A stretch of DNA of 64,000 nucleotides from Psilocybe cubensis (lineage: Eukaryota): NCBI GenBank assembly GCA_017499595.2, contig CM039001.1:2852001-2916000 (forward strand). Reading direction: 5' to 3'. The position numbers and the translations under genes were made by a program. The notes under the pieces were generated by a model. That model worked only from the letters and a program-made list of their open reading frames with translations. It made no database searches and had not been told where the DNA came from. Positions 10,605-49,291 of this stretch are shown here, one piece after another. Position 1 is the stretch's first letter. Each line of letters begins with the position of its first letter.

Positions 10605-10981
10605 TTAGACACTGATAAGTGGCTAAATGAAATCACTATTTACAATCACTTGACTTAAAATGTACTTTTAGATTAGGTAAATAATTTATATTATGACTAA
10701 CCCCAGGGTGCTGCATGTTTGCTGTATGTGTGCTCCATTGCTGCAGTGCTATGGGCTACTGGAATGTTGTGGCCTGTACTATTGGGGTGCTGCAAGTCAC
10801 GTGTGCCATAAGCAGTATGTGGTCTATCAATTCCTATTGCAGTGATATTGCTGTTTGGCCAGTTGCTAAGATTGATATCTCAAAATCCCTATTTGGATTT
10901 TAAGAAGATTTTGGATAGTTGAGTAGATATCCGGAAGAGCAGATATTTGACCGGCTTGGGTCTTTTTAGATAGGTTGTTAC

Positions 10982-11359
10982 TGTTAAAACTGCTCTCTAT
11001 GTCTTCCTCACTTTGCTATCTTATCAGATTAGATTACTTTCTTCTTATCTTTATTTGCTCTCCAGACCATTCTAGACACATGATATTTATCAGTCCATAG
11101 ACTGGTCTGGACCGGACCAGAGTAGACCTAGGTAGACCAGAGTACTTGAGTCTACACAGTATATAGTCACTCTAGTTTACATCCTGAAGTCCCCAGTTAC
11201 TCACTTCGGACTTCAGGTTAGTTTGTTAGCACTTTGCTCAATTCACCCAGTTACACACTTCGGACTTCAGATGCTTTGTGCTCGCTTATCCCTGCGCCCT
11301 ACGTTCTATAACTCGGTCGCCGAGTAGCTCACACTGCCCCGAGCTCGCCTGCTTCAACA
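10982..11359 (+). repeat. Copia A 5' LTR of host copy (378 bp)
   Basis: TGTTAAAAC...TTCAACA, the reverse complement of the five array LTRs. Confidence 0.97.
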
Positions 11360-11371
11360 GGTTATGGGCCC
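11360..11371 (+). promoter_or_regulatory. Primer-binding site, half-tRNA-iMet type
   Basis: GGTTATGGGCCC directly abuts the LTR and is complementary to the anticodon arm of initiator tRNA-Met, as in Drosophila copia and Ty5. Confidence 0.9.
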
Positions 11372-11762
11372 CGCACTCTAAGCGCTCCAATTCCGTGTTT
11401 TGCGAACCAAGTTGCTTTCTGCATAGTTTTCACAAAACGGTCATTTTAGTCTTTTTTGCTTTTTATCCTCTACCAGGCCCGGCCATACATTGCCGCTGCT
11501 AGTAGGGTTGAACGAGCATGCCTTACGCGACTTGTTATCCTCGGTTGAGCGGGCCCCCGTTGCCTAATCCCCGAGTTATTTCTAGTTAAAAGTAACCCTT
11601 TTAAATTAGGCTAGTTTAACTTTGTCTTTTCAACTTGCGTTCGCATCGCACCCCGAGCTCCGGATAACGCCTAGTTTGTTTCCACACATCATTACACATT
11701 TGTACACATTACTACTAACACTCGTATCCATCCGCTTACGTGTTCCTTCGCAATTCGCAATA

Positions 11763-12807
11763 ATGACTTCTGATCCCCAAATCACTTCATTGAACTCAAC
11801 CAACTACAACACCTGGGCAGGCCAGATGACCGCCTATCTCCAGTCTAAAGGGATATGGCGCATTGTCAGCGGTGCTAGAGCACAGCCAACGCTCTCAGAC
11901 AAGCCTACTGCTCAGGAGGAAGCTTTGCTTGAAACCTACTTTGAGCAGAGAGACAAAGCATGTGGTTTGATCTATCTCAGTTTGGAGAATGATCAGAGGG
12001 TTCATGTGAAAGCCATCAAGGATGATCCTATCAAGATGTGGGATGACCTCGCTGCTGTACATCAGCAAAAGCGCCCTGGCAACCGCTTTAATGCATATGA
12101 TGATCTGTTCTCCATCCGAAAGGAGGAAGGTGAAAACCTTCAAACCCTAATCAATAGAGTTGAGCAAGCCATGTTGCTAATTCAGCAGCTTCGCCCTAAG
12201 GGGTTTGATCTGGCTAAGCTTGATGAAGAGCTTGCTTCGCTTGCTCTGGTCAGGGCACTCCCAGAAGAGTACAGTTCATTTGCATCCTCACTTCTCCTTT
12301 TGGACAAGTTGGACAAGGCTACAATTCATCAAGCCTTTGTCACAGAGGACATACAGTGACGTTGCCGTGCTTCGGAGATGCCTGCACTCGCCACCGCGTT
12401 CCAGACCGCTCCAGCCCCTTCTGCATCCAAGCCCAAGTGCGCATTTTGTGATATGACCAATCATGCAATAGACAAGTATCACAAGTTCATTGCTGCGCAA
12501 AAGGATGCGAAGGAGCGTGTCAAAGCGGCTCGCAAAGGCAACAGAGCGCACAAGGCCTCAGAGGCATCCAGTGAGGAAAAAGAGTCCAAGGACATGGAAT
12601 TTGCTGGAAATGCAAGTGCTCTTAATACCGATGTTCCCTCTTCCATTTCACCCCAAACTAATGACGATTGGATTGCAGACACAGGGGCGACTTCTCATAT
12701 GACGCCCCATCGCAATTGGGTTAGAAATTACACCCCCCTTTGCATTCCAATCCGATTAGCAGATGAACGAGTTATTTATTCTGCAGGGGTGGGCACTGTA
12801 TTCTTTG
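11763..12807 (+). pseudogene. gag: Copia gag-protease, disrupted
   Basis: Copia Gag (MTSDPQ...NYNTW), degenerate zinc knuckle, WIADTGATSHM. CGA>TGA stop at 12357. Cut by the array insertion. Confidence 0.92.
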
Positions 12808-13185
12808 TGTTGAAGCAGGCGAGCTCGGGGCAGTGTGAGCTACTCGGCGACCTAGTTATAGAACGTAGGGCGCAGGGATAAGCGAGCACGAAGCGTCTGA
12901 AGTCCGAAGTGAGTAACTGAGTGAATTGAGCAAAGTGCTAACAAACTAACCTGAAGTCCGAAGTGAGTAACTGGGGACTTCAGGATGTAAACTAGAGTGA
13001 CTATATACTGTGTAGACTCAAGTACTCTGGTCTACCTAGGTCTACTCTGGTCCGGTCCAGACCAGTCTATGGACTGATAAATATCATGTATCTAGAATGG
13101 TCTGGAGAGCAAATGAAGATAAGAAGAAAGTAATCTAATCTGATAAGATAGCAAAGTGAGGGAGACATAGAGAGCAGTTTTAACA
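12808..13185 (-). repeat. Copia A LTR (3'-terminal LTR of array)
   Basis: 378 bp, TG...CA, preceded on the minus strand by a PPT. Confidence 0.97.
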
Positions 13186-13194
13186 CTCCCCCCT
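13186..13194 (-). promoter_or_regulatory. Polypurine tract (the only one in the array)
   Basis: Purine run AG6AG on the minus strand immediately before the LTR TG. Confidence 0.9.
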
Positions 13195-13248
13195 ATTCTG
13201 ACAAGTCTCCAGAACAAAGAAAAATAAAGCAAAACAGAGAAAGAAAGA

Positions 13249-16200
13249 TTAAAGTTTGAGACCCATTTTATCTCTACAAAAGTCCACTTTAGGAGGTGAG
13301 AGGGGTTTGGTAAGAATATCAGCAGCTTGCTGATCAGTAGGAATATAAGAAGGAGAAATCTTTCCAACACCAACAGCATCCCTAAGCCAATAATAGCGCA
13401 AATCAAGGTGCTTCATCCGTCCATGGTGCTCTGGATTCTTGGAAACACTGATAGATGACTGGTTGTCCATATGCAGCACAGAGGGCTCAGTGACTGTGTA
13501 GCCAAACTCCTCAAGGATATTGCGCATCCACACAATTTCCTTGGCTGCCTCCACCGCAGCAATGTACTCTGCCTCTGTAGTAGACAGTGTTACAACAGTT
13601 TGGAGTTTGCTTGCCCAGCCAATAGCACCTCCAGCTAGAACGGTCAAATAACCACTCGTAGAGCGTCCAGTATCTACACAATCACCATGTGCAGCATCAG
13701 TGTAGGTGACAAAGTTATCATGGCCCACAGCGCCAGAATAAGTCAACTTGTAATCCAGAGTGCCTCTGAGGTAGCGGAATAAATGTTTAACGGCAGCCCA
13801 ATGCTTAGGCCCAGGATTGGAGTTGAAGCGTGCCAGATAGGACACAGTAAAAGCAATGTCAGGACGGGTCATGGTGGCTAGATACTGCAAGGAGCCAACT
13901 GCATTGAGGTAGGGAACATTTCGCATAAATTCCACCTCATCTCCATTCTGAGGTCCATCTGCCTTGGACAGAACAGTGCCCACAGCCATAGGTGTTTTGA
14001 CCGGATTAGAATCAGTCATGCCATATGTATCAAGCATATCGAGGATATACTGACGCTGATGCAAGGAAATGGTTTTAGCAGCCATATCTCGCTCAATGGC
14101 AACACCAAGTAAATACTGTGTAGGACCCAGATTACGGAGTTCAAAACGCGCAGCTAGCTGCTTAACAGCTCTATCTATGGCGGCGTCCGATTTGGAGGCA
14201 AAAGTAATGCCATGAATATAAATAGGAACAATAATCTTCACATCTCCATCTGAATAGATGTAGACAGAGCGATCTGATTCTATACACTTGAACCCCATAT
14301 CTGACAATGCCTCATGCAACTTGAGGTTCCATTGACGTGCAGACTGCTTAAGACCATAGAGCGACTTTTTGAGCTTCAAAACCATGTTAGAACCACCTTG
14401 GTGAAATCCTTCAGGTTGTAACATGTAAATCTCCTTGTCTAGGTCATCTTTAGTGAAAGCAGCTGTAATATCAACAAAGCACAACTTCAAGTCTCCAATG
14501 GCGGCCAGAGCCACAATCAAGCGGAAAGTAGGAGCAAAGACCTCATGGTAATCAATGCCAGGGCGCTGACTATAGCTCTTGGCAACGATACAAGCCTTGT
14601 AGCGCTCTATACTGCCATCTGCATTTCGCTTGATTTTAAAGACCCAACCACAGCCAATTGCCTTTTGACCCGGAGGGAGCTCAACTTGCTCCCAAGTTTG
14701 ATTGTGCTGCAACAGATTGAATTCTGTGTTAGCAGCCTCTTCCCACATGTGCGCATCAGGCGCTTTCATTGCCTGTTTGAATGTGCGCGGATCTGCGCTT
14801 GAAACAAGCCCAGCAAACTCCACCTCTTCAAATCCAGGATCATTGGCTTCAGGTGGTTCAGGATCATGTGAGACCTTCCACCATTCACCAGGCTGCTTAG
14901 GAACGCGAGTAGTGCGTCTCAACGTTGCAGGATCAACTGGAGCACGCTGGCGGCGTGCAGGCTTAGGAGGAGGTGCAGGAACGGCCTCAGGCTGTGGCGG
15001 TTCAGCTGGCTGTTCAGGAGGCGCAATAGGCACTTCTGGCTCAATGACAGGACTTGGAGTAGAGTCATCCTCATCATCATTAAAATTGAAGCCATTAGAG
15101 TCCCCCCCTGAATTAGGAGGTGGTGCACTTGCAGAAGAAGTGGGAAGAAGGTCAAACTTTGGCATAGGGCCAGTGGACACCCCAGGGAAGCACCTTTCGT
15201 CGAAATCAGCTCTCTCAGAGATAATGAACCTTTTGGTGACTGGGTTGTAAAACTCCCAGCCCTTGTACCCAGTAGGATACCCAACAAAGATACACTTCTC
15301 CATATGAGGCTGCAACGATTTGCGCTTATCTCCCTGAACATAAACATATGCAAGGCAACCCCAAACCCTCAAATGACTAACATCAGGTTTGCGCTTGTTC
15401 CAGCTTTCATACGGAGTCTTGTCCGGTAGAGGAGCTGTAGGAACACGATTCCATACATGCATGTATGCTGCAACACAGCAACCCCAAAACGAAGGTGGTA
15501 CACGAGCCTCATTGAGCATGGAAGTAACATGTTCTGCCATGGTGCGATTTGCACGCTCTGCAACTCCGTTCTGTTGTGGGCGATTTCGCGTTGTATGACG
15601 ACGCTCAATGCCACACTGGTCAGTGAATTTGATGAAAGCATTTGACATGTATTCACCAGCTTTGTCATCCTGCAGCGCTTTGATCTTAAAGCCTAATTTG
15701 TTCTCAGCCCATGCTTTGTACGTTTGAAACGCACTGAATGCATCGCTTTTGCGCTTAAGAAGCACAGCAGCTCTACTCTTTGTATGGTCATCAATAAAGG
15801 TTATCCAGTAGCGATAGCCTTCAGGAGTAGGGGGCGAGATAGGACCTTTCAGATTTGAGAAGATAAGCGCAAGCGGAACATCTGACATGCTTGGTGAAGA
15901 AGGAAATGGGTTGGAATGCATCTTGCCTGCAAGGCAAAGTTCACAAATGGGGTCAGGCTGTTGCTATGAATTCAGCTTGAGTCCAGTAACCATACTCTCT
16001 CTAATTATCTTTTGGAGGTCAGTGTAGCTATGATGAGCAAACCGACGATGCCAGAGACTGATATCAAGGGGTAGAGTGGAATTGGAGGAAATGAAGGCAG
16101 ACTCCGAAATAGGAACTGTATAACCGTTCAATAAAGCGCAGTTTGATGTACTAACATCTGCAGAGAAGAGACAAGCTCCTTTGCGATGAAACTCCATCAG

Positions 16201-17381
16201 ATTAGCATCAATGGTGATTTTGAAGCCTTTGTGCTTTGTGAGGTATAGAACAGACAGTAGATTGTTTCGGAGATCTGGTACATGTAAAACTCTAGTTAAC
16301 TCGACGCCTCTTGACTTTATTCCATTTACAACTGGTTCAAAGAACACAGTGCCCACCCCTGCAGAATAAATAACTCGTTCATCTGCTAATCGGATTGGAA
16401 TGCGAAGGGGGGTGTAATTTCTAACCCAATTGCGATGGGGTGTCATATGAGAAGTCGCCCCTGTGTCTGCAATCCAATCGTCATTAGTTTGGGGTGAAAT
16501 GGAAGAGGGAACATTGGTATTAAGAGCACTTGCATTTCCAGCAAATTCCATGTCCTTGGACTCTTTTTCCTCACTGGATGCCTCTGAGGCCTTGTGCGCT
16601 CTATTGCCTTTGCGAACCGCTTTGACACGCTCCTTCGCATCCTTTTGCGCAGCAATGAACTTGTGACACTTGTCCATTGCATGATTGGTCATATCACAAA
16701 ATGCGCACTTGGGCTTGGATGCAGAAGGGGCTGGAGCGGTCTGGAATGCGGTGGCGAGTGCAGGCAACTCCGAAGCGCGGTGACGTCGCTGTATGTCCTC
16801 TGTGACAAAGGCTTGATGAATTGTAGCCTTGTCCAACTTGTCCAAAAGGAGAAGTGAGGATGCAAATGAACTGTACTTTCTGGGAGTGCCCTGACCAGAG
16901 CAAGCAAAGCAAGCTCTTCATCAAGCTTAGCCAGATCAAACCCCTTAGGGCGAAGCTGCTGAATTAGCAACATGGCTTGCTCAACTCTATTGATCAGGGT
17001 TTGAAGGTTTTCACCTTCCTCCTTTCGGATAGAGAACAGATCATCATATGCATTAAAGCGGTTGCCAGGGCGCTTTTGCTGATGTACAGCGGCCAGGGCA
17101 TCCCACATCTTGATAGGATCATCCTTGATGGCTTCCACATGAACCCTCTGATCATTCTCCAAACTGAGATAGATCAAACCACATGCTTTGTCTCTCTGCT
17201 CCAAGTAGGTTTCAAGCAAAGCTTCCTCCTGAGCAGTAGGCTTGTCTGAGAGCGTTGGCTGTGCTCTAGCACCGCTGACAATGCGCCATATCCCTTTAGA
17301 CTGGAGATAGGCGGTCATCTGGCCTGCCCAGGTGTTGTAGTTGGTTGAGTTCAATGGAGTGATTTGGGGATCAGAAGTCAT
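13249..17381 (-). pseudogene. pol: Copia gag-pol polyprotein, unit 1 (all domains present, disrupted)
   Basis: Gag-PR-IN-RT-RNase H, ending ADILTKPL. Gag frameshift near 16878, TAG at 15964-15966, RT motif YIHG, 15-bp deletion near 14530. Confidence 0.95.
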
Positions 17382-17772
17382 TATTGCGAATTGCGAAGGA
17401 ACGCGTAAGCGGATGGATACGAGTATTGGTAGTAATGTGTGGGGATGTGTAATGATGTGTGGAAACGAACTAGGCGTTACCCGGAGCTCGGGGTGTGATG
17501 CGAACGCAAGTGGAAAAGACGAAGTTAAACTAGCCTAATTTAAAAGGGTTACTTTTAACTAGAAATAACTCGGGGATTAGGCGACGGGGGCCCGCTCAAC
17601 CGAGGTTAACAAGTCGCGTAAGGCGTGCTCGTTCAACCCTACTAGCAGCGGCAATGTATGGCCGGGCCTGGTAGAGGATAAAAACCAAAAAAGACTAAAA
17701 TGACCGTTTTGTGAAAACTATGCAGAAAGCAACTTGGTTCGCAAAACACGGAATTGGAGCGCTTAGAGCGCG

Positions 17773-17784
17773 GGGCCCATAACC
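17773..17784 (-). promoter_or_regulatory. PBS (half-tRNA-iMet); repeated at 22257..22268, 26741..26752 and 31225..31236
   Basis: GGTTATGGGCCC on the minus strand adjoining each upstream LTR. Confidence 0.9.
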
Positions 17785-18162
17785 TGTTGAAGCAGGCGAG
17801 CTCGGGGCAGTGTGAGCTACTCGGCGACCTAGTTATAGAACGTAGGGCGCAGGGATAAGCGAGCACGAAGCGTCTGAAGTCCGAAGTGAGTAACTGGGTG
17901 AATTGAGCAAAGTGCTAACAAACTAACCTGAAGTCCGAAGTGAGTAACTGGGGACTTCAGGATGTAAACTAGAGTGACTATATACTGTGTAGACTCAAGT
18001 ACTCTGGTCTACCTAGGTCTACTCTGGTCCGGTCCAGACCAGTCTATGGACTGATAAATATCATGTATCTAGAATGGTCTGGAGAGCAAATGAAGATAAG
18101 AAGAAAGTAATCTAATCTGATAAGATAGCAAAGTGAGGGAGACATAGAGAGCAGTTTTAACA
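17785..18162 (-). repeat. Copia A shared internal LTR
   Basis: 378 bp. Its 5' TG is fused directly to pol sequence with no PPT. Confidence 0.97.
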
Positions 18163-21100
18163 GCATCAGTGTAGGTGACAAAGTTATCATGGCCCACAGC
18201 GCCAGAATAAGTCAACTTGTAATCCAGAGTGCCTCTGAGGTAGCGGAATAAATGTTTAACCGCAGCCCAATGCTTAGGTCCAGGATTGGAGTTGAAGCGT
18301 GCCAGATAGGACACAGTAAAAGCAATGTCAGGACGGGTCATGGTGGCTAGATACTGCAAGGAGCCAACTGCATTGAGGTAGGGAACATTTCGCATAAATT
18401 CCACCTCATCTCCATTCTGAGGTCCATCTGCCTTGGACAGAACAGTGCCCACAGCCATAGGTGTTTTGACCGGATTAGAATCAGTCATGCCATATGTATC
18501 AAGCATATCGAGGATATACTGACGCTGATGCAAGGAAATGGTTTTAGCAGCCATATCTCGCTCAATGGCAACACCAAGTAAATACTGTGTAGGACCCAGA
18601 TTACGGAGTTCAAAACGCGCAGCTAGCTGCTTAACAGCTCTATCTATGGCGGCGTCCGATTTGGAGGCAAAGGTAATGCCATGAATATAAATAGGAACAA
18701 TAATCTTCACATCTCCATCTGAATAGATGTAGACAGAGCGATCTGATTCTATACACTTGAACCCCATATCTAACAATGCCTCATGCAATTTGAGGTTCCA
18801 TTGATGTGCAGACTGCTTAAGACCATAGAGCGACTTTTTGAGCTTCAAAACCATGTTAGGACCACCTTGGTGAAATCCTTCGGGTTGTAGCATGTAAATC
18901 TCCTCGTCTAGGTCACCTTTAGTGAAAGCAGCTGTAATATCAACAGAGCGCAACTTCAAGTCTCCAATAGCGGCCAGAGCCACAATCAAGCGGAAAGTAG
19001 CAGGGCGGAAAGTAGGAGCAAAGACCTCATGGTAATCAATGCCAGGGCGCTGACTGTAGCCCTTGGCAACAATACGAGCCTTGTAGCACTCTATACTGCC
19101 ATCTGCATTTCGCTTGATTTTAAAGACCCAACCACAGCCAATTGCCTTTTGACCCGGAGGGAGCTCAACTCGCTCCCAAGTTTGATTGTGCTGCAACAGA
19201 TTGAATTCTGTGTTAGCAGCCTCTTCCCACATGTGCGCATCAGGCGCTTTCATTGCCTGTTTGAATGTGCGCGGATCTGCGCTTGAAACAAGCCCAGCAA
19301 ACTCCACCTCTTCAAATCCAGGATCATTGGCTTCAGGTGGTTCAGGATCATGTGAGACCTTCCACCATTCACCAGGCTGCTTAGGAACGCGAGTAGTGCG
19401 TCTCAACGTTGCAGGATCAACTGGAGCACGCTGGCGGCGTGCAGGCTTAGAAGGAGGTGCAGGAACGGCCTCAGGCTGTGGCGGTTCAGCTGGCTGTTCA
19501 GGAGGCGCAATAGGCACTTCTGGCTCAATGACAGGACTTGGAGTAGAGTCATCCTCATCATCATTAAAATTGAAGCCATTAGAGTCCCCCCCTGAATTAG
19601 GAGGTGGTGCACTTGCAGAAGAAGTGGGAAGAAGGTCAAACTTTGGCATAGGGCCAGTGGACACCCCAGGGAAGCACCTTTCGTCGAAATCAGCTCTCTC
19701 AGAGATAATGAACCTTTTGGTGACTGGGTTGTAAAACTCCCAGCCCTTGTACCCAGTAGGATACCCAACAAAGATACACTTCTCCATATGAGGCTGCAAC
19801 GATTTGCGCTTATCTCCCTGAACATAAACATATGCAAGGCAACCCCAAACCCTCAAATGACTAACATCAGGTTTGCGCTTGTTCCAGCTTTCATACGGAG
19901 TCTTGTCCGGTAGAGGAGCTGTAGGAACACGATTCCATACATGCATGTATGCTGCAACACAGCAACCCCAAAACGAAGGTGGTACACGAGCCTCATTGAG
20001 CATGGAAGTAACATGTTCTGCCATGGTGCGATTTGCACGCTCTGCAACTCCGTTCTGTTGTGGGCGATTTCGCGTTGTATGACGACGCTCAATGCCACAC
20101 TGGTCAGTGAATTTGATGAAAGCATTTGACATGTATTCACCAGCTTTGTCATCCTGCAGCGCTTTGATCTTAAAGCCTAATTTGTTCTCAGCCCATGCTT
20201 TGTACGTTTGAAACGCACTGAATGCATCGCTTTTGCGCTTAAGAAGCACAGCAGCTCTACTCTTTGTATGGTCATCAATAAAGGTTATCCAGTAGCGATA
20301 GCCTTCAGGAGTAGGGGGCGAGATAGGACCTTTCAGATTTGAGAAGATAAGCGCAAGCGGAACATCTGACATGCTTGGTGAAGAAGGAAATGGGTTGGAA
20401 TGCATCTTGCCTGCAAGGCAAAGTTCACAAATGGGGTCAGGCTGTTGCTATGAATTCAGCTTGAGTCCAGTAACCATACTCTCTCTAATTATCTTTTGGA
20501 GGTCAGTGTAGCTATGATGAGCAAACCGACGATGCCAGAGACTGATATCAAGGGGTAGAGTGGAATTGGAGGAAATGAAGGCAGACTCCGAAATAGGAAC
20601 TGTATAACCGTTCAATAAAGCGCAGTTTGATGTACTAACATCTGCAGAGAAGAGACAAGCTCCTTTGCGATGAAACTCCATCAGATTAGCATCAATGGTG
20701 ATTTTGAAGCCTTTGTGCTTTGTGAGGTATAGAACAGACAGTAGATTGTTTCGGAGATCTGGTACATGTAAAACTCTAGTTAACTCGACGCCTCTTGACT
20801 TTATTCCATTTACAACTGGTTCAAAGAACACAGTGCCCACCCCTGCAGAATAAATAACTCGTTCATCTGCTAATCGGATTGGAATGCGAAGGGGGGTGTA
20901 ATTTCTAACCCAATTGCGATGGGGTGTCATATGAGAAGTCGCCCCTGTGTCTGCAATCCAATCGTCATTAGTTTGGGGTGAAATGGAAGAGGGAACATTG
21001 GTATTAAGAGCACTTGCATTTCCAGCAAATTCCATGTCCTTGGACTCTTTTTCCTCACTGGATGCCTCTGAGGCCTTGTGCGCTCTATTGCCTTTGCGAA

Positions 21101-21865
21101 CCGCTTTGACACGCTCCTTCGCATCCTTTTGCGCAGCAATGAACTTGTGACACTTGTCCATTGCATGATTGGTCATATCACAAAATGCGCACTTGGGCTT
21201 GGATGCAGAAGGGGCTGGAGCGGTCTGGAATGCGGTGGCGAGTGCAGGCAACTCCGAAGCGCGGTGACGTCGCTGTATGTCCTCTGTGACAAAGGCTTGA
21301 TGAATTGTAGCCTTGTCCAACTTGTCCAAAAGGAGAAGTGAGGATGCAAATGAACTGTACTTTCTGGGAGTGCCCTGACCAGAGCAAGCAAAGCAAGCTC
21401 TTCATCAAGCTTAGCCAGATCAAACCCCTTAGGGCGAAGCTGCTGAATTAGCAACATGGCTTGCTCAACTCTATTGATCAGGGTTTGAAGGTTTTCACCT
21501 TCCTCCTTTCGGATAGAGAACAGATCATCATATGCATTAAAGCGGTTGCCAGGGCGCTTTTGCTGATGTACAGCGGCCAGGGCATCCCACATCTTGATAG
21601 GATCATCCTTGATGGCTTCCACATGAACCCTCTGATCATTCTCCAAACTGAGATAGATCAAACCACATGCTTTGTCTCTCTGCTCCAAGTAGGTTTCAAG
21701 CAAAGCTTCCTCCTGAGCAGTAGGCTTGTCTGAGAGCGTTGGCTGTGCTCTAGCACCGCTGACAATGCGCCATATCCCTTTAGACTGGAGATAGGCGGTC
21801 ATCTGGCCTGCCCAGGTGTTGTAGTTGGTTGAGTTCAATGGAGTGATTTGGGGATCAGAAGTCAT
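18163..21865 (-). pseudogene. pol: Copia gag-pol, unit 2 (RNase H deleted)
   Basis: Same frameshift, stop and YIHG as unit 1. The frame runs from YTDA into LTR sequence. Confidence 0.95.
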
Positions 21866-22268
21866 TATTGCGAATTGCGAAGGAACGCGTAAGCGGATGG
21901 ATACGAGTATTGGTAGTAATGTGTGGGGATGTGTAATGATGTGTGGAAACGAACTAGGCGTTACCCGGAGCTCGGGGTGTTATGCGAACGCAAGTGGAAA
22001 AGACGAAGTTAAACTAGCCTAATTTAAAAGGGTTACTTTTAACTAGAAATAACTCGGGGATTAGGCGACGGGGGCCCGCTCAACCGAGGTTAACAAGTCG
22101 CGTAAGGCGTGCTCGTTCAACCCTACTAGCAGCGGCAATGTATGGCCGGGCCTGGTAGAGGATAAAAACCAAAAAAGACTAAAATGACCGTTTTGTGAAA
22201 ACTATGCAGAAAGCAACTTGGTTCGCAAAACACGGAATTGGAGCGCTTAGAGCGCGGGGCCCATAACC

Positions 22269-22646
22269 TGTTGAAGCAGGCGAGCTCGGGGCAGTGTGAG
22301 CTACTCGGCGACCTAGTTATAGAACGTAGGGCGCAGGGATAAGCGAGCACGAAGCGTCTGAAGTCCGAAGTGAGTAACTGGGTGAATTGAGCAAAGTGCT
22401 AACAAACTAACCTGAAGTCCGAAGTGAGTAACTGGGGACTTCAGGATGTAAACTAGAGTGACTATATACTGTGTAGACTCAAGTACTCTGGTCTACCTAG
22501 GTCTACTCTGGTCCGGTCCAGACCAGTCTATGGACTGATAAATATCATGTATCTAGAATGGTCTGGAGAGCAAATGAAGATAAGAAGAAAGTAATCTAAT
22601 CTGATAAGATAGCAAAGTGAGGGAGACATAGAGAGCAGTTTTAACA
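22269..22646 (-). repeat. Copia A shared internal LTR
   Basis: 378 bp, same junction as at 18162. Confidence 0.97.
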
Positions 22647-25600
22647 GCATCAGTGTAGGTGACAAAGTTATCATGGCCCACAGCGCCAGAATAAGTCAAC
22701 TTGTAATCCAGAGTGCCTCTGAGGTAGCGGAATAAATGTTTAACCGCAGCCCAATGCTTAGGTCCAGGATTGGAGTTGAAGCGTGCCAGATAGGACACAG
22801 TAAAAGCAATGTCAGGACGGGTCATGGTGGCTAGATACTGCAAGGAGCCAACTGCATTGAGGTAGGGAACATTTCGCATAAATTCCACCTCATCTCCATT
22901 CTGAGGTCCATCTGCCTTGGACAGAACAGTGCCCACAGCCATAGGTGTTTTGACCGGATTAGAATCAGTCATGCCATATGTATCAAGCATATCGAGGATA
23001 TACTGACGCTGATGCAAGGAAATGGTTTTAGCAGCCATATCTCGCTCAATGGCAACACCAAGTAAATACTGTGTAGGACCCAGATTACGGAGTTCAAAAC
23101 GCGCAGCTAGCTGCTTAACAGCTCTATCTATGGCGGCGTCCGATTTGGAGGCAAAGGTAATGCCATGAATATAAATAGGAACAATAATCTTCACATCTCC
23201 ATCTGAATAGATGTAGACAGAGCGATCTGATTCTATACACTTGAACCCCATATCTAACAATGCCTCATGCAATTTGAGGTTCCATTGATGTGCAGACTGC
23301 TTAAGACCATAGAGCGACTTTTTGAGCTTCAAAACCATGTTAGGACCACCTTGGTGAAATCCTTCGGGTTGTAGCATGTAAATCTCCTCGTCTAGGTCAC
23401 CTTTAGTGAAAGCAGCTGTAATATCAACAGAGCGCAACTTCAAGTCTCCAATAGCGGCCAGAGCCACAATCAAGCGGAAAGTAGCAGGGCGGAAAGTAGG
23501 AGCAAAGACCTCATGGTAATCAATGCCAGGGCGCTGACTGTAGCCCTTGGCAACAATACGAGCCTTGTAGCACTCTATACTGCCATCTGCATTTCGCTTG
23601 ATTTTAAAGACCCAACCACAGCCAATTGCCTTTTGACCCGGAGGGAGCTCAACTCGCTCCCAAGTTTGATTGTGCTGCAACAGATTGAATTCTGTGTTAG
23701 CAGCCTCTTCCCACATGTGCGCATCAGGCGCTTTCATTGCCTGTTTGAATGTGCGCGGATCTGCGCTTGAAACAAGCCCAGCAAACTCCACCTCTTCAAA
23801 TCCAGGATCATTGGCTTCAGGTGGTTCAGGATCATGTGAGACCTTCCACCATTCACCAGGCTGCTTAGGAACGCGAGTAGTGCGTCTCAACGTTGCAGGA
23901 TCAACTGGAGCACGCTGGCGGCGTGCAGGCTTAGAAGGAGGTGCAGGAACGGCCTCAGGCTGTGGCGGTTCAGCTGGCTGTTCAGGAGGCGCAATAGGCA
24001 CTTCTGGCTCAATGACAGGACTTGGAGTAGAGTCATCCTCATCATCATTAAAATTGAAGCCATTAGAGTCCCCCCCTGAATTAGGAGGTGGTGCACTTGC
24101 AGAAGAAGTGGGAAGAAGGTCAAACTTTGGCATAGGGCCAGTGGACACCCCAGGGAAGCACCTTTCGTCGAAATCAGCTCTCTCAGAGATAATGAACCTT
24201 TTGGTGACTGGGTTGTAAAACTCCCAGCCCTTGTACCCAGTAGGATACCCAACAAAGATACACTTCTCCATATGAGGCTGCAACGATTTGCGCTTATCTC
24301 CCTGAACATAAACATATGCAAGGCAACCCCAAACCCTCAAATGACTAACATCAGGTTTGCGCTTGTTCCAGCTTTCATACGGAGTCTTGTCCGGTAGAGG
24401 AGCTGTAGGAACACGATTCCATACATGCATGTATGCTGCAACACAGCAACCCCAAAACGAAGGTGGTACACGAGCCTCATTGAGCATGGAAGTAACATGT
24501 TCTGCCATGGTGCGATTTGCACGCTCTGCAACTCCGTTCTGTTGTGGGCGATTTCGCGTTGTATGACGACGCTCAATGCCACACTGGTCAGTGAATTTGA
24601 TGAAAGCATTTGACATGTATTCACCAGCTTTGTCATCCTGCAGCGCTTTGATCTTAAAGCCTAATTTGTTCTCAGCCCATGCTTTGTACGTTTGAAACGC
24701 ACTGAATGCATCGCTTTTGCGCTTAAGAAGCACAGCAGCTCTACTCTTTGTATGGTCATCAATAAAGGTTATCCAGTAGCGATAGCCTTCAGGAGTAGGG
24801 GGCGAGATAGGACCTTTCAGATTTGAGAAGATAAGCGCAAGCGGAACATCTGACATGCTTGGTGAAGAAGGAAATGGGTTGGAATGCATCTTGCCTGCAA
24901 GGCAAAGTTCACAAATGGGGTCAGGCTGTTGCTATGAATTCAGCTTGAGTCCAGTAACCATACTCTCTCTAATTATCTTTTGGAGGTCAGTGTAGCTATG
25001 ATGAGCAAACCGACGATGCCAGAGACTGATATCAAGGGGTAGAGTGGAATTGGAGGAAATGAAGGCAGACTCCGAAATAGGAACTGTATAACCGTTCAAT
25101 AAAGCGCAGTTTGATGTACTAACATCTGCAGAGAAGAGACAAGCTCCTTTGCGATGAAACTCCATCAGATTAGCATCAATGGTGATTTTGAAGCCTTTGT
25201 GCTTTGTGAGGTATAGAACAGACAGTAGATTGTTTCGGAGATCTGGTACATGTAAAACTCTAGTTAACTCGACGCCTCTTGACTTTATTCCATTTACAAC
25301 TGGTTCAAAGAACACAGTGCCCACCCCTGCAGAATAAATAACTCGTTCATCTGCTAATCGGATTGGAATGCGAAGGGGGGTGTAATTTCTAACCCAATTG
25401 CGATGGGGTGTCATATGAGAAGTCGCCCCTGTGTCTGCAATCCAATCGTCATTAGTTTGGGGTGAAATGGAAGAGGGAACATTGGTATTAAGAGCACTTG
25501 CATTTCCAGCAAATTCCATGTCCTTGGACTCTTTTTCCTCACTGGATGCCTCTGAGGCCTTGTGCGCTCTATTGCCTTTGCGAACCGCTTTGACACGCTC

Positions 25601-26349
25601 CTTCGCATCCTTTTGCGCAGCAATGAACTTGTGACACTTGTCCATTGCATGATTGGTCATATCACAAAATGCGCACTTGGGCTTGGATGCAGAAGGGGCT
25701 GGAGCGGTCTGGAATGCGGTGGCGAGTGCAGGCAACTCCGAAGCGCGGTGACGTCGCTGTATGTCCTCTGTGACAAAGGCTTGATGAATTGTAGCCTTGT
25801 CCAACTTGTCCAAAAGGAGAAGTGAGGATGCAAATGAACTGTACTTTCTGGGAGTGCCCTGACCAGAGCAAGCAAAGCAAGCTCTTCATCAAGCTTAGCC
25901 AGATCAAACCCCTTAGGGCGAAGCTGCTGAATTAGCAACATGGCTTGCTCAACTCTATTGATCAGGGTTTGAAGGTTTTCACCTTCCTCCTTTCGGATAG
26001 AGAACAGATCATCATATGCATTAAAGCGGTTGCCAGGGCGCTTTTGCTGATGTACAGCGGCCAGGGCATCCCACATCTTGATAGGATCATCCTTGATGGC
26101 TTCCACATGAACCCTCTGATCATTCTCCAAACTGAGATAGATCAAACCACATGCTTTGTCTCTCTGCTCCAAGTAGGTTTCAAGCAAAGCTTCCTCCTGA
26201 GCAGTAGGCTTGTCTGAGAGCGTTGGCTGTGCTCTAGCACCGCTGACAATGCGCCATATCCCTTTAGACTGGAGATAGGCGGTCATCTGGCCTGCCCAGG
26301 TGTTGTAGTTGGTTGAGTTCAATGGAGTGATTTGGGGATCAGAAGTCAT
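22647..26349 (-). pseudogene. pol: Copia gag-pol, unit 3 (RNase H deleted)
   Basis: ORF set identical to unit 2, offset by 4484. Confidence 0.95.
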
Positions 26350-26752
26350 TATTGCGAATTGCGAAGGAACGCGTAAGCGGATGGATACGAGTATTGGTAG
26401 TAATGTGTGGGGATGTGTAATGATGTGTGGAAACGAACTAGGCGTTACCCGGAGCTCGGGGTGTTATGCGAACGCAAGTGGAAAAGACGAAGTTAAACTA
26501 GCCTAATTTAAAAGGGTTACTTTTAACTAGAAATAACTCGGGGATTAGGCGACGGGGGCCCGCTCAACCGAGGTTAACAAGTCGCGTAAGGCGTGCTCGT
26601 TCAACCCTACTAGCAGCGGCAATGTATGGCCGGGCCTGGTAGAGGATAAAAACCAAAAAAGACTAAAATGACCGTTTTGTGAAAACTATGCAGAAAGCAA
26701 CTTGGTTCGCAAAACACGGAATTGGAGCGCTTAGAGCGCGGGGCCCATAACC

Positions 26753-27130
26753 TGTTGAAGCAGGCGAGCTCGGGGCAGTGTGAGCTACTCGGCGACCTAG
26801 TTATAGAACGTAGGGCGCAGGGATAAGCGAGCACGAAGCGTCTGAAGTCCGAAGTGAGTAACTGGGTGAATTGAGCAAAGTGCTAACAAACTAACCTGAA
26901 GTCCGAAGTGAGTAACTGGGGACTTCAGGATGTAAACTAGAGTGACTATATACTGTGTAGACTCAAGTACTCTGGTCTACCTAGGTCTACTCTGGTCCGG
27001 TCCAGACCAGTCTATGGACTGATAAATATCATGTATCTAGAATGGTCTGGAGAGCAAATGAAGATAAGAAGAAAGTAATCTAATCTGATAAGATAGCAAA
27101 GTGAGGGAGACATAGAGAGCAGTTTTAACA
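26753..27130 (-). repeat. Copia A shared internal LTR
   Basis: 378 bp, same junction as at 18162. Confidence 0.97.
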
Positions 27131-30100
27131 GCATCAGTGTAGGTGACAAAGTTATCATGGCCCACAGCGCCAGAATAAGTCAACTTGTAATCCAGAGTGC
27201 CTCTGAGGTAGCGGAATAAATGTTTAACCGCAGCCCAATGCTTAGGTCCAGGATTGGAGTTGAAGCGTGCCAGATAGGACACAGTAAAAGCAATGTCAGG
27301 ACGGGTCATGGTGGCTAGATACTGCAAGGAGCCAACTGCATTGAGGTAGGGAACATTTCGCATAAATTCCACCTCATCTCCATTCTGAGGTCCATCTGCC
27401 TTGGACAGAACAGTGCCCACAGCCATAGGTGTTTTGACCGGATTAGAATCAGTCATGCCATATGTATCAAGCATATCGAGGATATACTGACGCTGATGCA
27501 AGGAAATGGTTTTAGCAGCCATATCTCGCTCAATGGCAACACCAAGTAAATACTGTGTAGGACCCAGATTACGGAGTTCAAAACGCGCAGCTAGCTGCTT
27601 AACAGCTCTATCTATGGCGGCGTCCGATTTGGAGGCAAAGGTAATGCCATGAATATAAATAGGAACAATAATCTTCACATCTCCATCTGAATAGATGTAG
27701 ACAGAGCGATCTGATTCTATACACTTGAACCCCATATCTAACAATGCCTCATGCAATTTGAGGTTCCATTGATGTGCAGACTGCTTAAGACCATAGAGCG
27801 ACTTTTTGAGCTTCAAAACCATGTTAGGACCACCTTGGTGAAATCCTTCGGGTTGTAGCATGTAAATCTCCTCGTCTAGGTCACCTTTAGTGAAAGCAGC
27901 TGTAATATCAACAGAGCGCAACTTCAAGTCTCCAATAGCGGCCAGAGCCACAATCAAGCGGAAAGTAGCAGGGCGGAAAGTAGGAGCAAAGACCTCATGG
28001 TAATCAATGCCAGGGCGCTGACTGTAGCCCTTGGCAACAATACGAGCCTTGTAGCACTCTATACTGCCATCTGCATTTCGCTTGATTTTAAAGACCCAAC
28101 CACAGCCAATTGCCTTTTGACCCGGAGGGAGCTCAACTCGCTCCCAAGTTTGATTGTGCTGCAACAGATTGAATTCTGTGTTAGCAGCCTCTTCCCACAT
28201 GTGCGCATCAGGCGCTTTCATTGCCTGTTTGAATGTGCGCGGATCTGCGCTTGAAACAAGCCCAGCAAACTCCACCTCTTCAAATCCAGGATCATTGGCT
28301 TCAGGTGGTTCAGGATCATGTGAGACCTTCCACCATTCACCAGGCTGCTTAGGAACGCGAGTAGTGCGTCTCAACGTTGCAGGATCAACTGGAGCACGCT
28401 GGCGGCGTGCAGGCTTAGAAGGAGGTGCAGGAACGGCCTCAGGCTGTGGCGGTTCAGCTGGCTGTTCAGGAGGCGCAATAGGCACTTCTGGCTCAATGAC
28501 AGGACTTGGAGTAGAGTCATCCTCATCATCATTAAAATTGAAGCCATTAGAGTCCCCCCCTGAATTAGGAGGTGGTGCACTTGCAGAAGAAGTGGGAAGA
28601 AGGTCAAACTTTGGCATAGGGCCAGTGGACACCCCAGGGAAGCACCTTTCGTCGAAATCAGCTCTCTCAGAGATAATGAACCTTTTGGTGACTGGGTTGT
28701 AAAACTCCCAGCCCTTGTACCCAGTAGGATACCCAACAAAGATACACTTCTCCATATGAGGCTGCAACGATTTGCGCTTATCTCCCTGAACATAAACATA
28801 TGCAAGGCAACCCCAAACCCTCAAATGACTAACATCAGGTTTGCGCTTGTTCCAGCTTTCATACGGAGTCTTGTCCGGTAGAGGAGCTGTAGGAACACGA
28901 TTCCATACATGCATGTATGCTGCAACACAGCAACCCCAAAACGAAGGTGGTACACGAGCCTCATTGAGCATGGAAGTAACATGTTCTGCCATGGTGCGAT
29001 TTGCACGCTCTGCAACTCCGTTCTGTTGTGGGCGATTTCGCGTTGTATGACGACGCTCAATGCCACACTGGTCAGTGAATTTGATGAAAGCATTTGACAT
29101 GTATTCACCAGCTTTGTCATCCTGCAGCGCTTTGATCTTAAAGCCTAATTTGTTCTCAGCCCATGCTTTGTACGTTTGAAACGCACTGAATGCATCGCTT
29201 TTGCGCTTAAGAAGCACAGCAGCTCTACTCTTTGTATGGTCATCAATAAAGGTTATCCAGTAGCGATAGCCTTCAGGAGTAGGGGGCGAGATAGGACCTT
29301 TCAGATTTGAGAAGATAAGCGCAAGCGGAACATCTGACATGCTTGGTGAAGAAGGAAATGGGTTGGAATGCATCTTGCCTGCAAGGCAAAGTTCACAAAT
29401 GGGGTCAGGCTGTTGCTATGAATTCAGCTTGAGTCCAGTAACCATACTCTCTCTAATTATCTTTTGGAGGTCAGTGTAGCTATGATGAGCAAACCGACGA
29501 TGCCAGAGACTGATATCAAGGGGTAGAGTGGAATTGGAGGAAATGAAGGCAGACTCCGAAATAGGAACTGTATAACCGTTCAATAAAGCGCAGTTTGATG
29601 TACTAACATCTGCAGAGAAGAGACAAGCTCCTTTGCGATGAAACTCCATCAGATTAGCATCAATGGTGATTTTGAAGCCTTTGTGCTTTGTGAGGTATAG
29701 AACAGACAGTAGATTGTTTCGGAGATCTGGTACATGTAAAACTCTAGTTAACTCGACGCCTCTTGACTTTATTCCATTTACAACTGGTTCAAAGAACACA
29801 GTGCCCACCCCTGCAGAATAAATAACTCGTTCATCTGCTAATCGGATTGGAATGCGAAGGGGGGTGTAATTTCTAACCCAATTGCGATGGGGTGTCATAT
29901 GAGAAGTCGCCCCTGTGTCTGCAATCCAATCGTCATTAGTTTGGGGTGAAATGGAAGAGGGAACATTGGTATTAAGAGCACTTGCATTTCCAGCAAATTC
30001 CATGTCCTTGGACTCTTTTTCCTCACTGGATGCCTCTGAGGCCTTGTGCGCTCTATTGCCTTTGCGAACCGCTTTGACACGCTCCTTCGCATCCTTTTGC

Positions 30101-30833
30101 GCAGCAATGAACTTGTGACACTTGTCCATTGCATGATTGGTCATATCACAAAATGCGCACTTGGGCTTGGATGCAGAAGGGGCTGGAGCGGTCTGGAATG
30201 CGGTGGCGAGTGCAGGCAACTCCGAAGCGCGGTGACGTCGCTGTATGTCCTCTGTGACAAAGGCTTGATGAATTGTAGCCTTGTCCAACTTGTCCAAAAG
30301 GAGAAGTGAGGATGCAAATGAACTGTACTTTCTGGGAGTGCCCTGACCAGAGCAAGCAAAGCAAGCTCTTCATCAAGCTTAGCCAGATCAAACCCCTTAG
30401 GGCGAAGCTGCTGAATTAGCAACATGGCTTGCTCAACTCTATTGATCAGGGTTTGAAGGTTTTCACCTTCCTCCTTTCGGATAGAGAACAGATCATCATA
30501 TGCATTAAAGCGGTTGCCAGGGCGCTTTTGCTGATGTACAGCGGCCAGGGCATCCCACATCTTGATAGGATCATCCTTGATGGCTTCCACATGAACCCTC
30601 TGATCATTCTCCAAACTGAGATAGATCAAACCACATGCTTTGTCTCTCTGCTCCAAGTAGGTTTCAAGCAAAGCTTCCTCCTGAGCAGTAGGCTTGTCTG
30701 AGAGCGTTGGCTGTGCTCTAGCACCGCTGACAATGCGCCATATCCCTTTAGACTGGAGATAGGCGGTCATCTGGCCTGCCCAGGTGTTGTAGTTGGTTGA
30801 GTTCAATGGAGTGATTTGGGGATCAGAAGTCAT
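27131..30833 (-). pseudogene. pol: Copia gag-pol, unit 4 (RNase H deleted)
   Basis: ORF set identical to unit 2, offset by 8968. Confidence 0.95.
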
Positions 30834-31236
30834 TATTGCGAATTGCGAAGGAACGCGTAAGCGGATGGATACGAGTATTGGTAGTAATGTGTGGGGATGT
30901 GTAATGATGTGTGGAAACGAACTAGGCGTTACCCGGAGCTCGGGGTGTTATGCGAACGCAAGTGGAAAAGACGAAGTTAAACTAGCCTAATTTAAAAGGG
31001 TTACTTTTAACTAGAAATAACTCGGGGATTAGGCGACGGGGGCCCGCTCAACCGAGGTTAACAAGTCGCGTAAGGCGTGCTCGTTCAACCCTACTAGCAG
31101 CGGCAATGTATGGCCGGGCCTGGTAGAGGATAAAAACCAAAAAAGACTAAAATGACCGTTTTGTGAAAACTATGCAGAAAGCAACTTGGTTCGCAAAACA
31201 CGGAATTGGAGCGCTTAGAGCGCGGGGCCCATAACC

Positions 31237-31614
31237 TGTTGAAGCAGGCGAGCTCGGGGCAGTGTGAGCTACTCGGCGACCTAGTTATAGAACGTAGGGC
31301 GCAGGGATAAGCGAGCACGAAGCGTCTGAAGTCCGAAGTGAGTAACTGGGTGAATTGAGCAAAGTGCTAACAAACTAACCTGAAGTCCGAAGTGAGTAAC
31401 TGGGGACTTCAGGATGTAAACTAGAGTGACTATATACTGTGTAGACTCAAGTACTCTGGTCTACCTAGGTCTACTCTGGTCCGGTCCAGACCAGTCTATG
31501 GACTGATAAATATCATGTATCTAGAATGGTCTGGAGAGCAAATGAAGATAAGAAGAAAGTAATCTAATCTGATAAGATAGCAAAGTGAGGGAGACATAGA
31601 GAGCAGTTTTAACA
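31237..31614 (-). repeat. Copia A LTR (5'-terminal LTR of array)
   Basis: 378 bp, followed on the plus strand by the TSD CTTTG. Confidence 0.97.
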
Positions 31615-31619
31615 CTTTG

Positions 31620-45760: not shown

Positions 45761-46219
45761 TTAGGTAGAGACTTAAACAAAAAAATACATCTCCTTACTC
45801 TTTAATCATCTTTATCACCTCCCTCCTAAAACCATTCTCAATCTCTAGAGCGTTTTAAAATACTCTTCCTACATCCAAACTGTCTGACTCTACTCTTCCG
45901 TAGCCTTTTGTGTTATCCACCCTCAACCGTCTCAACAAATTATTCCTAGAAGCTGACTAGCTTTTTCTAGCAATAGAAAGTGAAACTACCTGCTTTGCTG
46001 CTATTCACGAGAATTACAGATTTGTACTGTCAACACTAAATCACCTACTCAGATTCTCGCTTGCTGTTGATTTTCACAATGCTTGTTCTTGCCTTGATTC
46101 TTTGTTTGCCCAGTTTTTGGCTTTACAATCATCTATTGCAGAACTGAGACAGTCTGCAGCTAATCCTGAAAGTATTCACTCCTCTTGTTTCTCAACTCCT
46201 GACAGTCTCCCAGGATGGA

Positions 46220-49200: not shown

Positions 49201-49291
49201 TGTCATTGGGATTTCATATTAATTAAACCTTGGCTAGAAAGATATGAGGATGCTATCATCTGCTTATATTTTATCATAAAAATGGTAGGTA
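46220..49291. mobile_element. Foldback-like element F: ~1.05-kb inverted arms around a 978-bp spacer
   Basis: 46214..47266 is the reverse complement of 48245..49297, with few mismatches and no net indel. Termini TACCTACCA...TGGTAGGTA. TTGCCATA(A/G)AT subrepeats in the arms. Confidence 0.88.

Follow-up and report, generated by a model that had tools for sequence, protein, structure and literature searches.

How an LTR retrotransposon that occupies a single insertion site can come to stand there four times in tandem, with three of its units cut short at the same base, is the question raised by this 64,000-nucleotide stretch of the Psilocybe cubensis genome (the window; GenBank assembly GCA_017499595.2, contig CM039001.1, positions 2,852,001 to 2,916,000). 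On the minus strand, 12808-31614 form a single Ty1/copia insertion with the target-site duplication (TSD) CAAAG on both sides. Within it, four units, each consisting of an LTR and of gag-pol running into RNase H, stand head-to-tail and are followed by one 508-bp 3′ part and one 3′ LTR. Units a, b, and c (4484 bp each) end within RNase H and are joined directly to base 1 of the next LTR. Unit d measures 4469 bp because of a 15-bp deletion, so that the arithmetic of the first-pass annotation of this locus (4484+508-15=4977) holds as 4469+508=4977. In the direction of the element, the features are:

31615..31619, minus strand: upstream copy of the TSD, CAAAG on the minus strand and CTTTG on the plus strand
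27131..31614, minus strand: unit a, 4484 bp; 5′ LTR 31237-31614, then gag-pol to the YTDA of RNase H; 0 differences from b and c
22647..27130, minus strand: unit b, 4484 bp; LTR 26753-27130; junction 27130/27131
18163..22646, minus strand: unit c, 4484 bp; LTR 22269-22646; junction 22646/22647
18162..18163, minus strand: c/d junction; LTR base 1 at 18162, last pol base of unit c at 18163; 2-bp TG ambiguity
13694..18162, minus strand: unit d, 4469 bp, mosaic; LTR 17785-18162
16691..16917, minus strand: overlap of the gag and pol open frames
15964..15966, minus strand: in-frame TAG separating the protease/pre-integrase and integrase parts; at the equivalent place in all four units
13186..13693, minus strand: single 3′ part, 508 bp; RNase H remainder, stop, 3′ UTR, and polypurine tract; not in units a-c
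12808..13185, minus strand: 3′ LTR, 378 bp, TG..CA; 1 difference (position 266) from the four unit LTRs
12803..12807, minus strand: downstream copy of the TSD

One CAAAG duplication surrounds the whole array, and the paralogous site at 10336-10340 is empty and has CTTTG only once; the array therefore goes back to a single normal insertion that was later rearranged where it stood.

The 378-bp direct LTRs (TGTT...AACA) with a 5-bp TSD and the domain order gag - protease - integrase - reverse transcriptase - RNase H are those of Ty1/copia (Pseudoviridae-type) elements, and Pfam matches follow in the order Retrotran_gag_2, Pol_BBD, gag_pre-integrs, rve, SH3_retrovirus, and RVT_2. The C-terminal piece of 183 residues gave no match by Pfam (E<=10) or by PDB sequence search (E<=1). 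Fold comparison of its predicted model, a low-confidence one (pLDDT only 56), suggests that it is RNase H, as all 12 PDB matches at E<=0.001 are RNase HI. All 15 sequences of an alignment share the aspartate of YTDA (D35 of this piece), which the model places in its first strand; from this position in the fold and from the motif, we take it to be the first catalytic Asp of RNase H. The 508-bp part closes with a polypurine tract (PPT), GGGGGGAG, next to the 3′ LTR, the PPT AGGGGGGAG directly adjoining the LTR, while the sequence after the 5′ LTR reads GGTTATGGGCC... A one-base length difference from most family reads at 16877 puts gag and pol out of frame in all four units.

All three junctions are identical, with pol ...ACTGATGC joined to LTR base 1 (TGTTAAAAC). 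On the minus strand, where the element lies, ...TACACTGATGC is followed by TGTTAAAAC in three of three cases; on the plus strand of the window, 18154-18170 read GTTTTAACA and then GCATCAGT. The uninterrupted copy at 13694/13693 runs from ...TACACTGATGC into TGCACATGG. A 28-mer across the junction occurs three times (at 18151, 22635, and 27119, spaced by 4484 bp; 0 expected from 100 shuffles). TG opens both the LTR and the normal continuation of pol, which leaves the position of the junction ambiguous by 2 bp. Directly after YTDA, the equivalent of 13186..13693 (508 bp) is absent. The first-pass annotation had described precisely this: LTR base 1 joined to pol just after YTDA in the repeated units, with the rest of RNase H, the 3′ UTR, and the PPT removed at an overlap of 2 bp (TG).

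A plain deletion derivative, in which a random loss of 508 bp was followed by unequal exchange between LTRs, is extremely unlikely to be the source of these joints. LTR-LTR exchange is described as a common origin of LTR-internal-LTR-internal-LTR structures with one TSD (Morales-Diaz et al., 2025; PMC11899658), and the structures in that account resemble the array in their alternating LTRs and internal regions, their very high unit identity, the one 5-bp TSD around the whole, and their nesting in another transposon. They differ in having complete internal regions throughout, with the usual PPT and PBS on either side of the shared LTR. One TSD also surrounds the present tandem, but in three of its four internal regions the final 508 bp, PPT included, are missing, so that the junction cannot be the product of simple LTR-LTR exchange. 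A random deletion would end on LTR base 1 at only about 3 in about 5355 positions (3 allowing for the TG ambiguity), odds at which the coincidence with the LTR terminus is not chance. Moreover, the 508 bp are kept in the last unit, which is not expected in a locus descended from a deleted element. Having lost the PPT, a deletion derivative could not spread by transposition; no dispersed subfamily with the same 508-bp deletion was found in the window or in the read, protein, and metagenome searches. Random deletion was rejected on the LTR-terminus endpoint and the intact last unit. A single multi-unit cDNA, made by template switching or from read-through RNA, was likewise rejected by reasoning, 18.8 kb being far above the size of the element and the internal LTRs having no PPT before them. 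The exact LTR terminus, used three times, shows that a free cDNA end was joined here. The junction is real, and it looks integrase-made.

What the cDNA end was joined to is less easily read from the junction. The first-pass annotation favoured autointegration: both ends of a cDNA would be joined to its own RNase H site, giving a 4484-bp one-LTR deletion circle, and the circle or a multimer of it would recombine homologously with a resident full-length copy to produce two units and the 3′ part, and eventually four units. The geometry is right (exact LTR base 1, same orientation), the predicted circle has the length of the unit, and the single 3′ part calls for no extra deletion step. Deletion circles of this type have been documented for copia and gypsy elements in plants and a fungus (Lee et al., 2020, PMC7197481; Joubert and Krasileva, 2022, PMC9694575). 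As described there, such circles, copia-type and fungal ones included, carry one LTR plus the internal region as far as the point of attack, to which the LTR terminus is joined in the same orientation; they differ from the array in being extrachromosomal dead-end products detected as split reads. The present junction, known here from assembled sequence, lies in a chromosome, recurs in tandem, and has a normal 3′ end after it.

The match with a 5′ deletion circle thus stands, but it is not diagnostic, and nothing requires a circle. Nor did a reciprocal junction or a dispersed subfamily with this deletion turn up to speak against one. The left junction of a same-orientation self-insertion has the same sequence, so the geometry cannot single out the circle. 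Self-nested insertion predicts every sequence feature equally well, and both routes lead to the same final array, mosaic last unit included. In Ty1, as Garfinkel et al. are said to have reported in 2006, autointegration concentrates at the internal PPT. In the present element the only internal PPT-like tract (15101-15109) lies about 1.4 kb from the junction, with no sign of a flap-directed hot spot, and it was rejected as one. A search of titles and abstracts returned no chromosomal capture of an autointegration circle, which leaves this step without a documented rate. Captured autointegration is, on this evidence, an unlikely origin of the array.

Insertion of the family into itself can be observed directly. 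The array is nested, in opposite orientation, in a host copy of its own family, and a third copy lies nearby, interrupted by a gypsy solo LTR at 7738-8187:

10982..12807, plus strand: host copy, left part; LTR 10982-11359 and internal region to the insertion site; about 97% identical to the array element
31615..33792, plus strand: host copy, right part; without element positions 3899-4030, ending at position 4131
7652..10604, minus strand: third copy, fragmentary; element positions 4235-1557, spanning the empty site 10336-10340

In raw reads of a related organism (X22 and X23), six of the 15 joints listed (of 117) run from LTR base 1 (13184/13185) into the family itself, at 12868, 13645, 13767, 13880, 15384, and 16159. 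Read support for each LTR-start joint is alike in the two samples (23-71 reads in X22, 16-61 in X23). At least five of these joints stand at about single-copy depth, and the depths fit chromosomal single copies. The joint at 13880 lies only about 190 bp from the site of the array junction and has the same orientation; it is accompanied by a reciprocal joint from 13885 to 12808 (41 and 45 reads), and together the two imply a 5-bp duplication. Insertion of this family into its own copies is thus demonstrably common; self-nesting is seen repeatedly in the family reads, unlike circle capture.

Ordinary insertion of copy into copy accounts for the junction at least as well as a captured circle, and a self-nested insertion followed by loss of the duplicated 3′ part and by unequal exchange is the reading we somewhat favour. 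It would start with a copia-type element that integrates normally, duplicating 5 bp, into an older member of its family. Within the RNase H coding region of this element, another cDNA from the same defective subfamily would then insert in the same orientation, yielding the junction of pol...GATGC with TGTT...LTR. The nested state would comprise two tandem duplications, one of the LTR-gag-pol segment up to the site (4.5 kb) and one of the rest of RNase H with PPT and LTR (0.9 kb). One 3′ copy, and the reciprocal junction with it, would next be lost when the neighbouring 3′ parts, or the LTRs belonging to them, recombined. The same recombination process makes solo LTRs. Finally, very recent unequal sister-chromatid exchange may have taken the 4.5-kb unit from two copies to four.

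What the data show is the anatomy, the joint at the exact LTR terminus, the one flanking TSD, three identical units with a mosaic fourth, and frequent self-nesting in the family; the nested intermediate, the later loss of its second 3′ part, and how many exchanges took place in which order are inferred. The intermediate is unseen, and the loss of the 3′ duplicate costs one step more than the circle route. The first-pass annotation had named same-orientation nested insertion as its alternative; self-nesting in the family raises its prior, but the reciprocal junction (LTR end, then RNase H remainder) does not occur in the window. Insertion of one transposable element into or beside another, followed by growth of tandem arrays through unequal exchange, has been published (McGurk and Barbash, 2018; PMC5932611). 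As in the present array, transposition rather than slippage makes the tandem junction in that account and the dimer feeds unequal exchange; tail-to-internal and internal junctions can, according to the same source, reflect nested insertions. Most of the cases described there are whole elements that entered one target site twice, and their junction contains the target duplicate. Here the second insertion would lie within the first element, leaving a truncated repeat unit and a single 3′ part.

Comparison of the units constrains both routes. Units a, b, and c show 0 differences over 4484 columns. Unit d departs from them by 22 substitutions and the 15-bp deletion; one substitution lies at unit position 666, and the other 21 and the deletion lie at unit positions 3196-4386, that is, within the last 1.3 kb. 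With the two older copies as outgroups, eight derived alleles fall to a-c and 11 plus the deletion to d, while one site is ambiguous and two are without an outgroup. As both sides carry derived alleles, type 1 (a-c) and type 2 (d) represent two lineages rather than one decayed copy. The identity of a-c and the difference of d fit two source copies plus recent exchange. Three pure type-1 units need the first exchange to have fallen within the first 665 bp of the 4484-bp unit, which has a chance of about 15% if exchanges are evenly spread; the nested and circle models are equally constrained. If a circle entered by a single crossover, the first unit should carry resident alleles up to that crossover, but a equals b and c throughout, so that this crossover, too, would have to fall in the first 665 bp. 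The absence of differences among three units would also fit one multimer entering at once. That the 4484-bp unit is the genomic fossil of an autointegration 'suicide' circle, possibly a rolling-circle trimer, that re-entered by homologous recombination is nonetheless doubtful.

The cDNA end could also have been joined without integrase. The left end of a linear cDNA would then have been ligated by non-homologous or microhomology joining at the shared TG, either to a chromosomal break in the RNase H region of a resident copy or to the broken right end of a truncated cDNA, the latter giving a circle; growth of the array would have followed as under the other routes. The 2 bp common to the LTR start and the continuing pol are as expected from such joining, and retrotransposon circles made by alternative end joining are described in a preprint (10.1101/2022.09.25.509424). 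A 2-bp match, however, arises by chance in 1/16 junctions, the neighbouring same-orientation joint in X22 and X23 has a 5-bp duplication that points to integrase, and the ends of the array themselves carry a 5-bp TSD. End joining is, for these reasons, quite unlikely.

Finally, the junction might exist in some chromosomal or circular molecules while the number or placement of identical units was made by the assembler. Identity of a-c at all 4484 columns is also expected from repeated traversal of one graph cycle. The array junction is missing from the 15 joints listed (of 117) for four public whole-genome runs, which possibly derive from other strains or species, and exact matches to the junction-spanning proteins of 778 and 890 aa are absent from the protein collection. 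The junction 28-mer had 0 exact matches in metagenome contigs. A query made of the last 120 aa of the 778-aa frame, the final 30 of which are LTR-encoded, gave 90 matches among proteins of 66-210 aa; none extends into the LTR-encoded tail (top coverage 79%). Among longer proteins, the 120 matches listed (of 310) cover at most 76% of the query, except P0167 (93%), whose alignment past YTDA continues without gaps into ordinary RNase H sequence. These protein searches are weak, as transposon frames of this organism seem scarcely represented and the best relative is 91% identical. In these searches the junction was seen nowhere outside the window. It speaks against an artefact of assembly that the junction borders units of type 1 (a/b and b/c) as well as the distinct type-2 unit d (c/d), and that the C at position 666 is kept by d and not by a, a pattern that a single pool of circle reads would hardly give. 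Assemblers collapse tandem repeats more often than they expand them. An artefactual array is highly unlikely.

The array represents a clean and very young case of a transposon turning into a tandem repeat, with a period that was fixed when an integrase-type joint linked two copies of one element. It remains as a whole in its original insertion site, where the target duplication is intact, and stages as early as this are seldom encountered before mutation has obscured them. Should the nested route be true, the locus would show a known process with textbook clarity in a mushroom-forming fungus and would otherwise be ordinary. Should the circle route be true, autointegration products, held to be dead ends, could seed tandem repeats and so contribute to the evolution of genomes. 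Each route predicts its own pre-array allele, and population long-read data from this locus could therefore settle the question.

Nested insertion has also been proposed as a source of retrotransposon-derived tandem repeats in centromeres. In the CRM1/CRM4 repeats (Sharma et al., 2013; PMC3648361), as in the array, the unit comes from a portion of an LTR element; the authors suggest that related elements nesting in one another were the start, with growth by conversion or unequal exchange and rolling circle as an alternative. The units described are, in contrast, short LTR-UTR segments with junctions ascribed to illegitimate recombination at 3-bp homologies rather than to an exact LTR terminus, and the CRM arrays are old and long, unlike the array found here.

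The window carries on its minus strand (12808-31614) what is, judged from sequence, a young tandem of truncated Ty1/copia units, flanked by a target-site duplication and with its period set by an integrase-type joint between LTR and pol. Such an array of truncated copia units represents a new variation on known transposon-derived tandem structures. Self-comparison of the window gives a 4484-bp period over 13692-31614, with further stretches of this sequence around it on both strands. Every unit starts with an LTR.

Parts of the array, in the order of the minus strand
31619-31615, minus: upstream target duplicate CAAAG
31614-27131, minus: unit a, 4484 bp
27130-22647, minus: unit b, 4484 bp
22646-18163, minus: unit c, 4484 bp
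18162-13694, minus: unit d, 4469 bp
13693-13186, minus: single 3' part, 508 bp
13185-12808, minus: 3' LTR, 378 bp, TG...CA
12807-12803, minus: downstream target duplicate CAAAG

Pfam domains of the element follow the order copia-type gag, Pol_BBD, gag_pre-integrs, integrase core, retroviral SH3-like domain and RVT_2. The C-terminal 183 residues have no match in Pfam or in a PDB sequence search. Their model, built on a 15-sequence alignment and of low confidence (pLDDT 56), displays a beta-beta-beta-alpha-beta-alpha order, and RNase HI accounts for 12 of its 12 PDB matches with E<=0.001. Among the matches listed, Psilocybe cyanescens supplies the nearest public protein (91% over the aligned part) and the remaining named ones are from Agaricales, so the host is an agaric fungus. 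A purine run, AGGGGGGGA, at 15101-15109 on the minus strand resembles the 3' polypurine tract (PPT); it lies about midway along the element, at position 3054 of 5355, and is a central PPT candidate.

At all three unit-to-unit borders TACACTGATGC is followed directly by TGTTAAAAC, the start of the LTR, and in the uninterrupted unit d by TGCACATGG. A 28-mer spanning the junction has exactly three occurrences, with zero expected. The break falls directly 3' of the YTDA codons, whose Asp is invariant in the 15-sequence alignment and forms part of the first strand in the low-confidence model (pLDDT 56). The 508 bp absent from units a-c comprise the remaining RNase H, the stop codon, the 3' UTR and the polypurine tract abutting the 3' LTR. 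The observation is real and precise: reading the three junctions on the minus strand confirmed the coordinates in the first-pass annotation, comparison with unit d its 2-bp TG overlap, and the unit lengths, with the 15-bp deletion in unit d, its arithmetic (4484+508-15=4977). A plain deletion would have to meet the first LTR base by chance, as only about 3 of 5355 positions would allow, and is scarcely credible. Because a chance endpoint there is so rare, the junction was made from a free cDNA end; that it was end-joined, and not integrase-made, is unlikely. Protein-level searches for a junction-spanning peptide, which are weak tests, were negative, as was a metagenome scan for the junction.

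Units a, b and c show 0 differences over 4484 columns. Unit d departs from them by a 15-bp deletion and 22 substitutions, of which 20 are transitions. Apart from a single substitution at unit position 666, all of these changes (21 substitutions and the deletion) fall within 3196-4386. The four unit LTRs match one another throughout; the 3' LTR has one differing position. An assembly artefact in the number or placement of units is considered quite unlikely. Polarisation with the two older copies assigns the derived allele to units a-c at 8 sites and to unit d at 11, the deletion in unit d also being derived; one site is ambiguous and two lack an outgroup. Since derived alleles occur on both sides, two lineages are involved, unit d being a mosaic of both. 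Common to the four units are an in-frame TAG (15964-15966) and an offset between the gag and pol frames near 16877; at both places the majority of family reads in X22 and X23, raw Illumina runs of one related organism, differ from the window. The units belong to a defective subfamily, whose mobilisation must have occurred in trans.

A run search found part of the element in 19 of 24 listed run rows, 10 of them with half of the words or more. X22, X23 and two contig sets (X1 and X7) were mapped on window 12807-17783, which holds the 3' LTR, the 3' part and the internal region without a second LTR. In X22/X23 the depth, with the two orientation columns added together, is about 1000 over the internal region and roughly double over the LTR, from which some 25-30 family copies are estimated (1632 million letters read; contig sets of 41-47 million letters). 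Among the 15 joints listed of 117, six lead from the first LTR base into sequence of the same family.

Joints of the LTR start with family sequence (reads in X22 and X23)
to 13645, same orientation: 27 and 34
to 13880, same orientation: 34 and 31
to 15384, same orientation: 71 and 61
to 12868, in the LTR, same orientation: 23 and 23
to 13767, opposite orientation: 26 and 26
to 16159, opposite orientation: 32 and 16

Similar counts in the two samples and single-copy depth argue that these joints are chromosomal, not a spray of circles. The reciprocal of the 13880 joint is also present (13885 to 12808; 41 and 45 reads), and the two together amount to a self-nested insertion in the same orientation, with a duplication of 5 bp, some 190 bp from the site of the array's junction. 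Reciprocal partners of the other five joints are outside the 15 listed of 117. The array's own joint (13185 to 13694, skipping 508) is likewise missing from these 15 in each of the four runs; a joint present in three copies would be expected among the best supported, so either the array is absent from the X22/X23 samples or these belong to another strain than that of the window.

The 15384 joint is supported by roughly double the reads of the other LTR-start joints and may itself be repeated. Three of the six listed (13645, 13767 and 13880/13885), together with the window junction at 13694, cluster in a 240-bp stretch of the RNase H coding region. This could be a self-insertion hot spot, but the events are too few and come from the 15 joints listed of 117. 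C>T and G>A make up 601 of 853 variant places of X22 on 12807-17783, and both types dominate the variant places among family reads of X22/X23; the excess resembles the outcome of methylcytosine deamination or of a RIP-like process that affects the copia family.

We lean towards self-nested insertion followed by recombination as the origin of the array. With U as the 4.5-kb part and V as the 0.9-kb part (508 bp plus LTR), copy B would insert into copy A at the site in the same orientation, giving U_A U_B V_B V_A; the adjacent V parts, or their LTRs, would recombine to U U V, and unequal exchange would expand this to U4 V. The route involves only processes seen or documented, because integration into own copies is observed here and excerpts of published work describe recombination between LTRs or repeats (PMC11899658), unequal exchange of transposon dimers (PMC5932611) and nested insertion as a proposed source of retrotransposon tandem repeats (PMC3648361).

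The first-pass annotation had favoured a captured integrase autointegration circle, with same-orientation nesting as the alternative. A deletion circle U would recombine with a resident copy to U U V in a single step, and exchange or the entry of a multimer would then produce U4 V. Autointegration circles are a well-documented kind of extrachromosomal product, in a fungus as well (PMC7197481; PMC9694575), but the titles and abstracts searched contain no report of one re-entering a chromosome to found an array, and the only internal PPT-like tract is not near the junction; capture is a minor possibility. Both routes lead to final sequences that are letter-for-letter the same, the 5 bp before the LTR included, so the geometry of the junction does not decide between them. 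The LTR-to-pol geometry on which the circle was proposed is real and permits that reading, yet a circle is neither needed nor favoured. Three units with pure type-1 alleles (those of units a-c at unit positions 3196-4386) followed by a mosaic require, on either route, a first crossover before unit position 666. The routes differ in the earlier content of the locus, a type-1 element under nesting and a type-2 element (unit d alleles) under circle capture.

The array is inserted into another, plus-strand copy of the same family, next to a third copy.

Family copies around the array
10982-11359, plus: LTR of the host copy
until 12807 and again 31615-33792, plus: internal region of the host copy
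7652-10604, minus: third, fragmentary copy

In the fragmentary copy the target is unbroken and has CTTTG only once (GTATTCTTTGAACC), which places the whole array in one normal integration site. Rearrangement in place is preferred, entry as one piece being less plausible. The host and fragmentary copies lie head to head with 377 bp of unrelated sequence between them (10605-10981), are 96-98% identical in two stretches (689/705 and 1261/1300 aligned bases) and lack the 3' end, both stopping near element positions 4131-4235; the pair may be an old inverted duplication.

Within the fragmentary copia copy sits a solo gypsy LTR (7738-8187, 450 bp, TGTCAGGG...CCCTGACA) with a 5-bp duplication, ATCAT. 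It belongs to the same family as a Ty3/gypsy chromovirus-type element on the plus strand at 50280-56498, in whose pol in-frame stops separate four successive frames (52367-53059, 53060-54172, 54173-55228 and 55229-56164).

Gypsy features
about 50282 and 56165, plus: LTR starts, TGTCAGGG
50280-56498, plus: Pfam domains Ty3 capsid/gag, RVT_1, RT_RNaseH, Integrase_H2C2, rve, SH3_Tf2-1 and chromodomain

The stretch 56875-58561 is a second, fragmentary gypsy copy, containing an inverted LTR copy (56875-57276) and adjoining plus-strand frames with Integrase_H2C2 (57250-57858) and SH3_Tf2-1 (57941-58561). Cellular genes were not seen in frames of at least 180 aa at 34-64 kb (Pfam) or of at least 150 aa at 1-8.2 kb (listed only), and the window looks like a transposon nest. 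It also contains a copia-type gag frame (37913-38563), an AT-rich direct repeat of about 1.5 kb with 84% identity (1603-3117 and 43129-44650), and inverted repeats of 1053 bp each (46214-47266 and 48245-49297), 99% identical and about 980 bp apart, with 21-bp tandem repeats near both outer ends.
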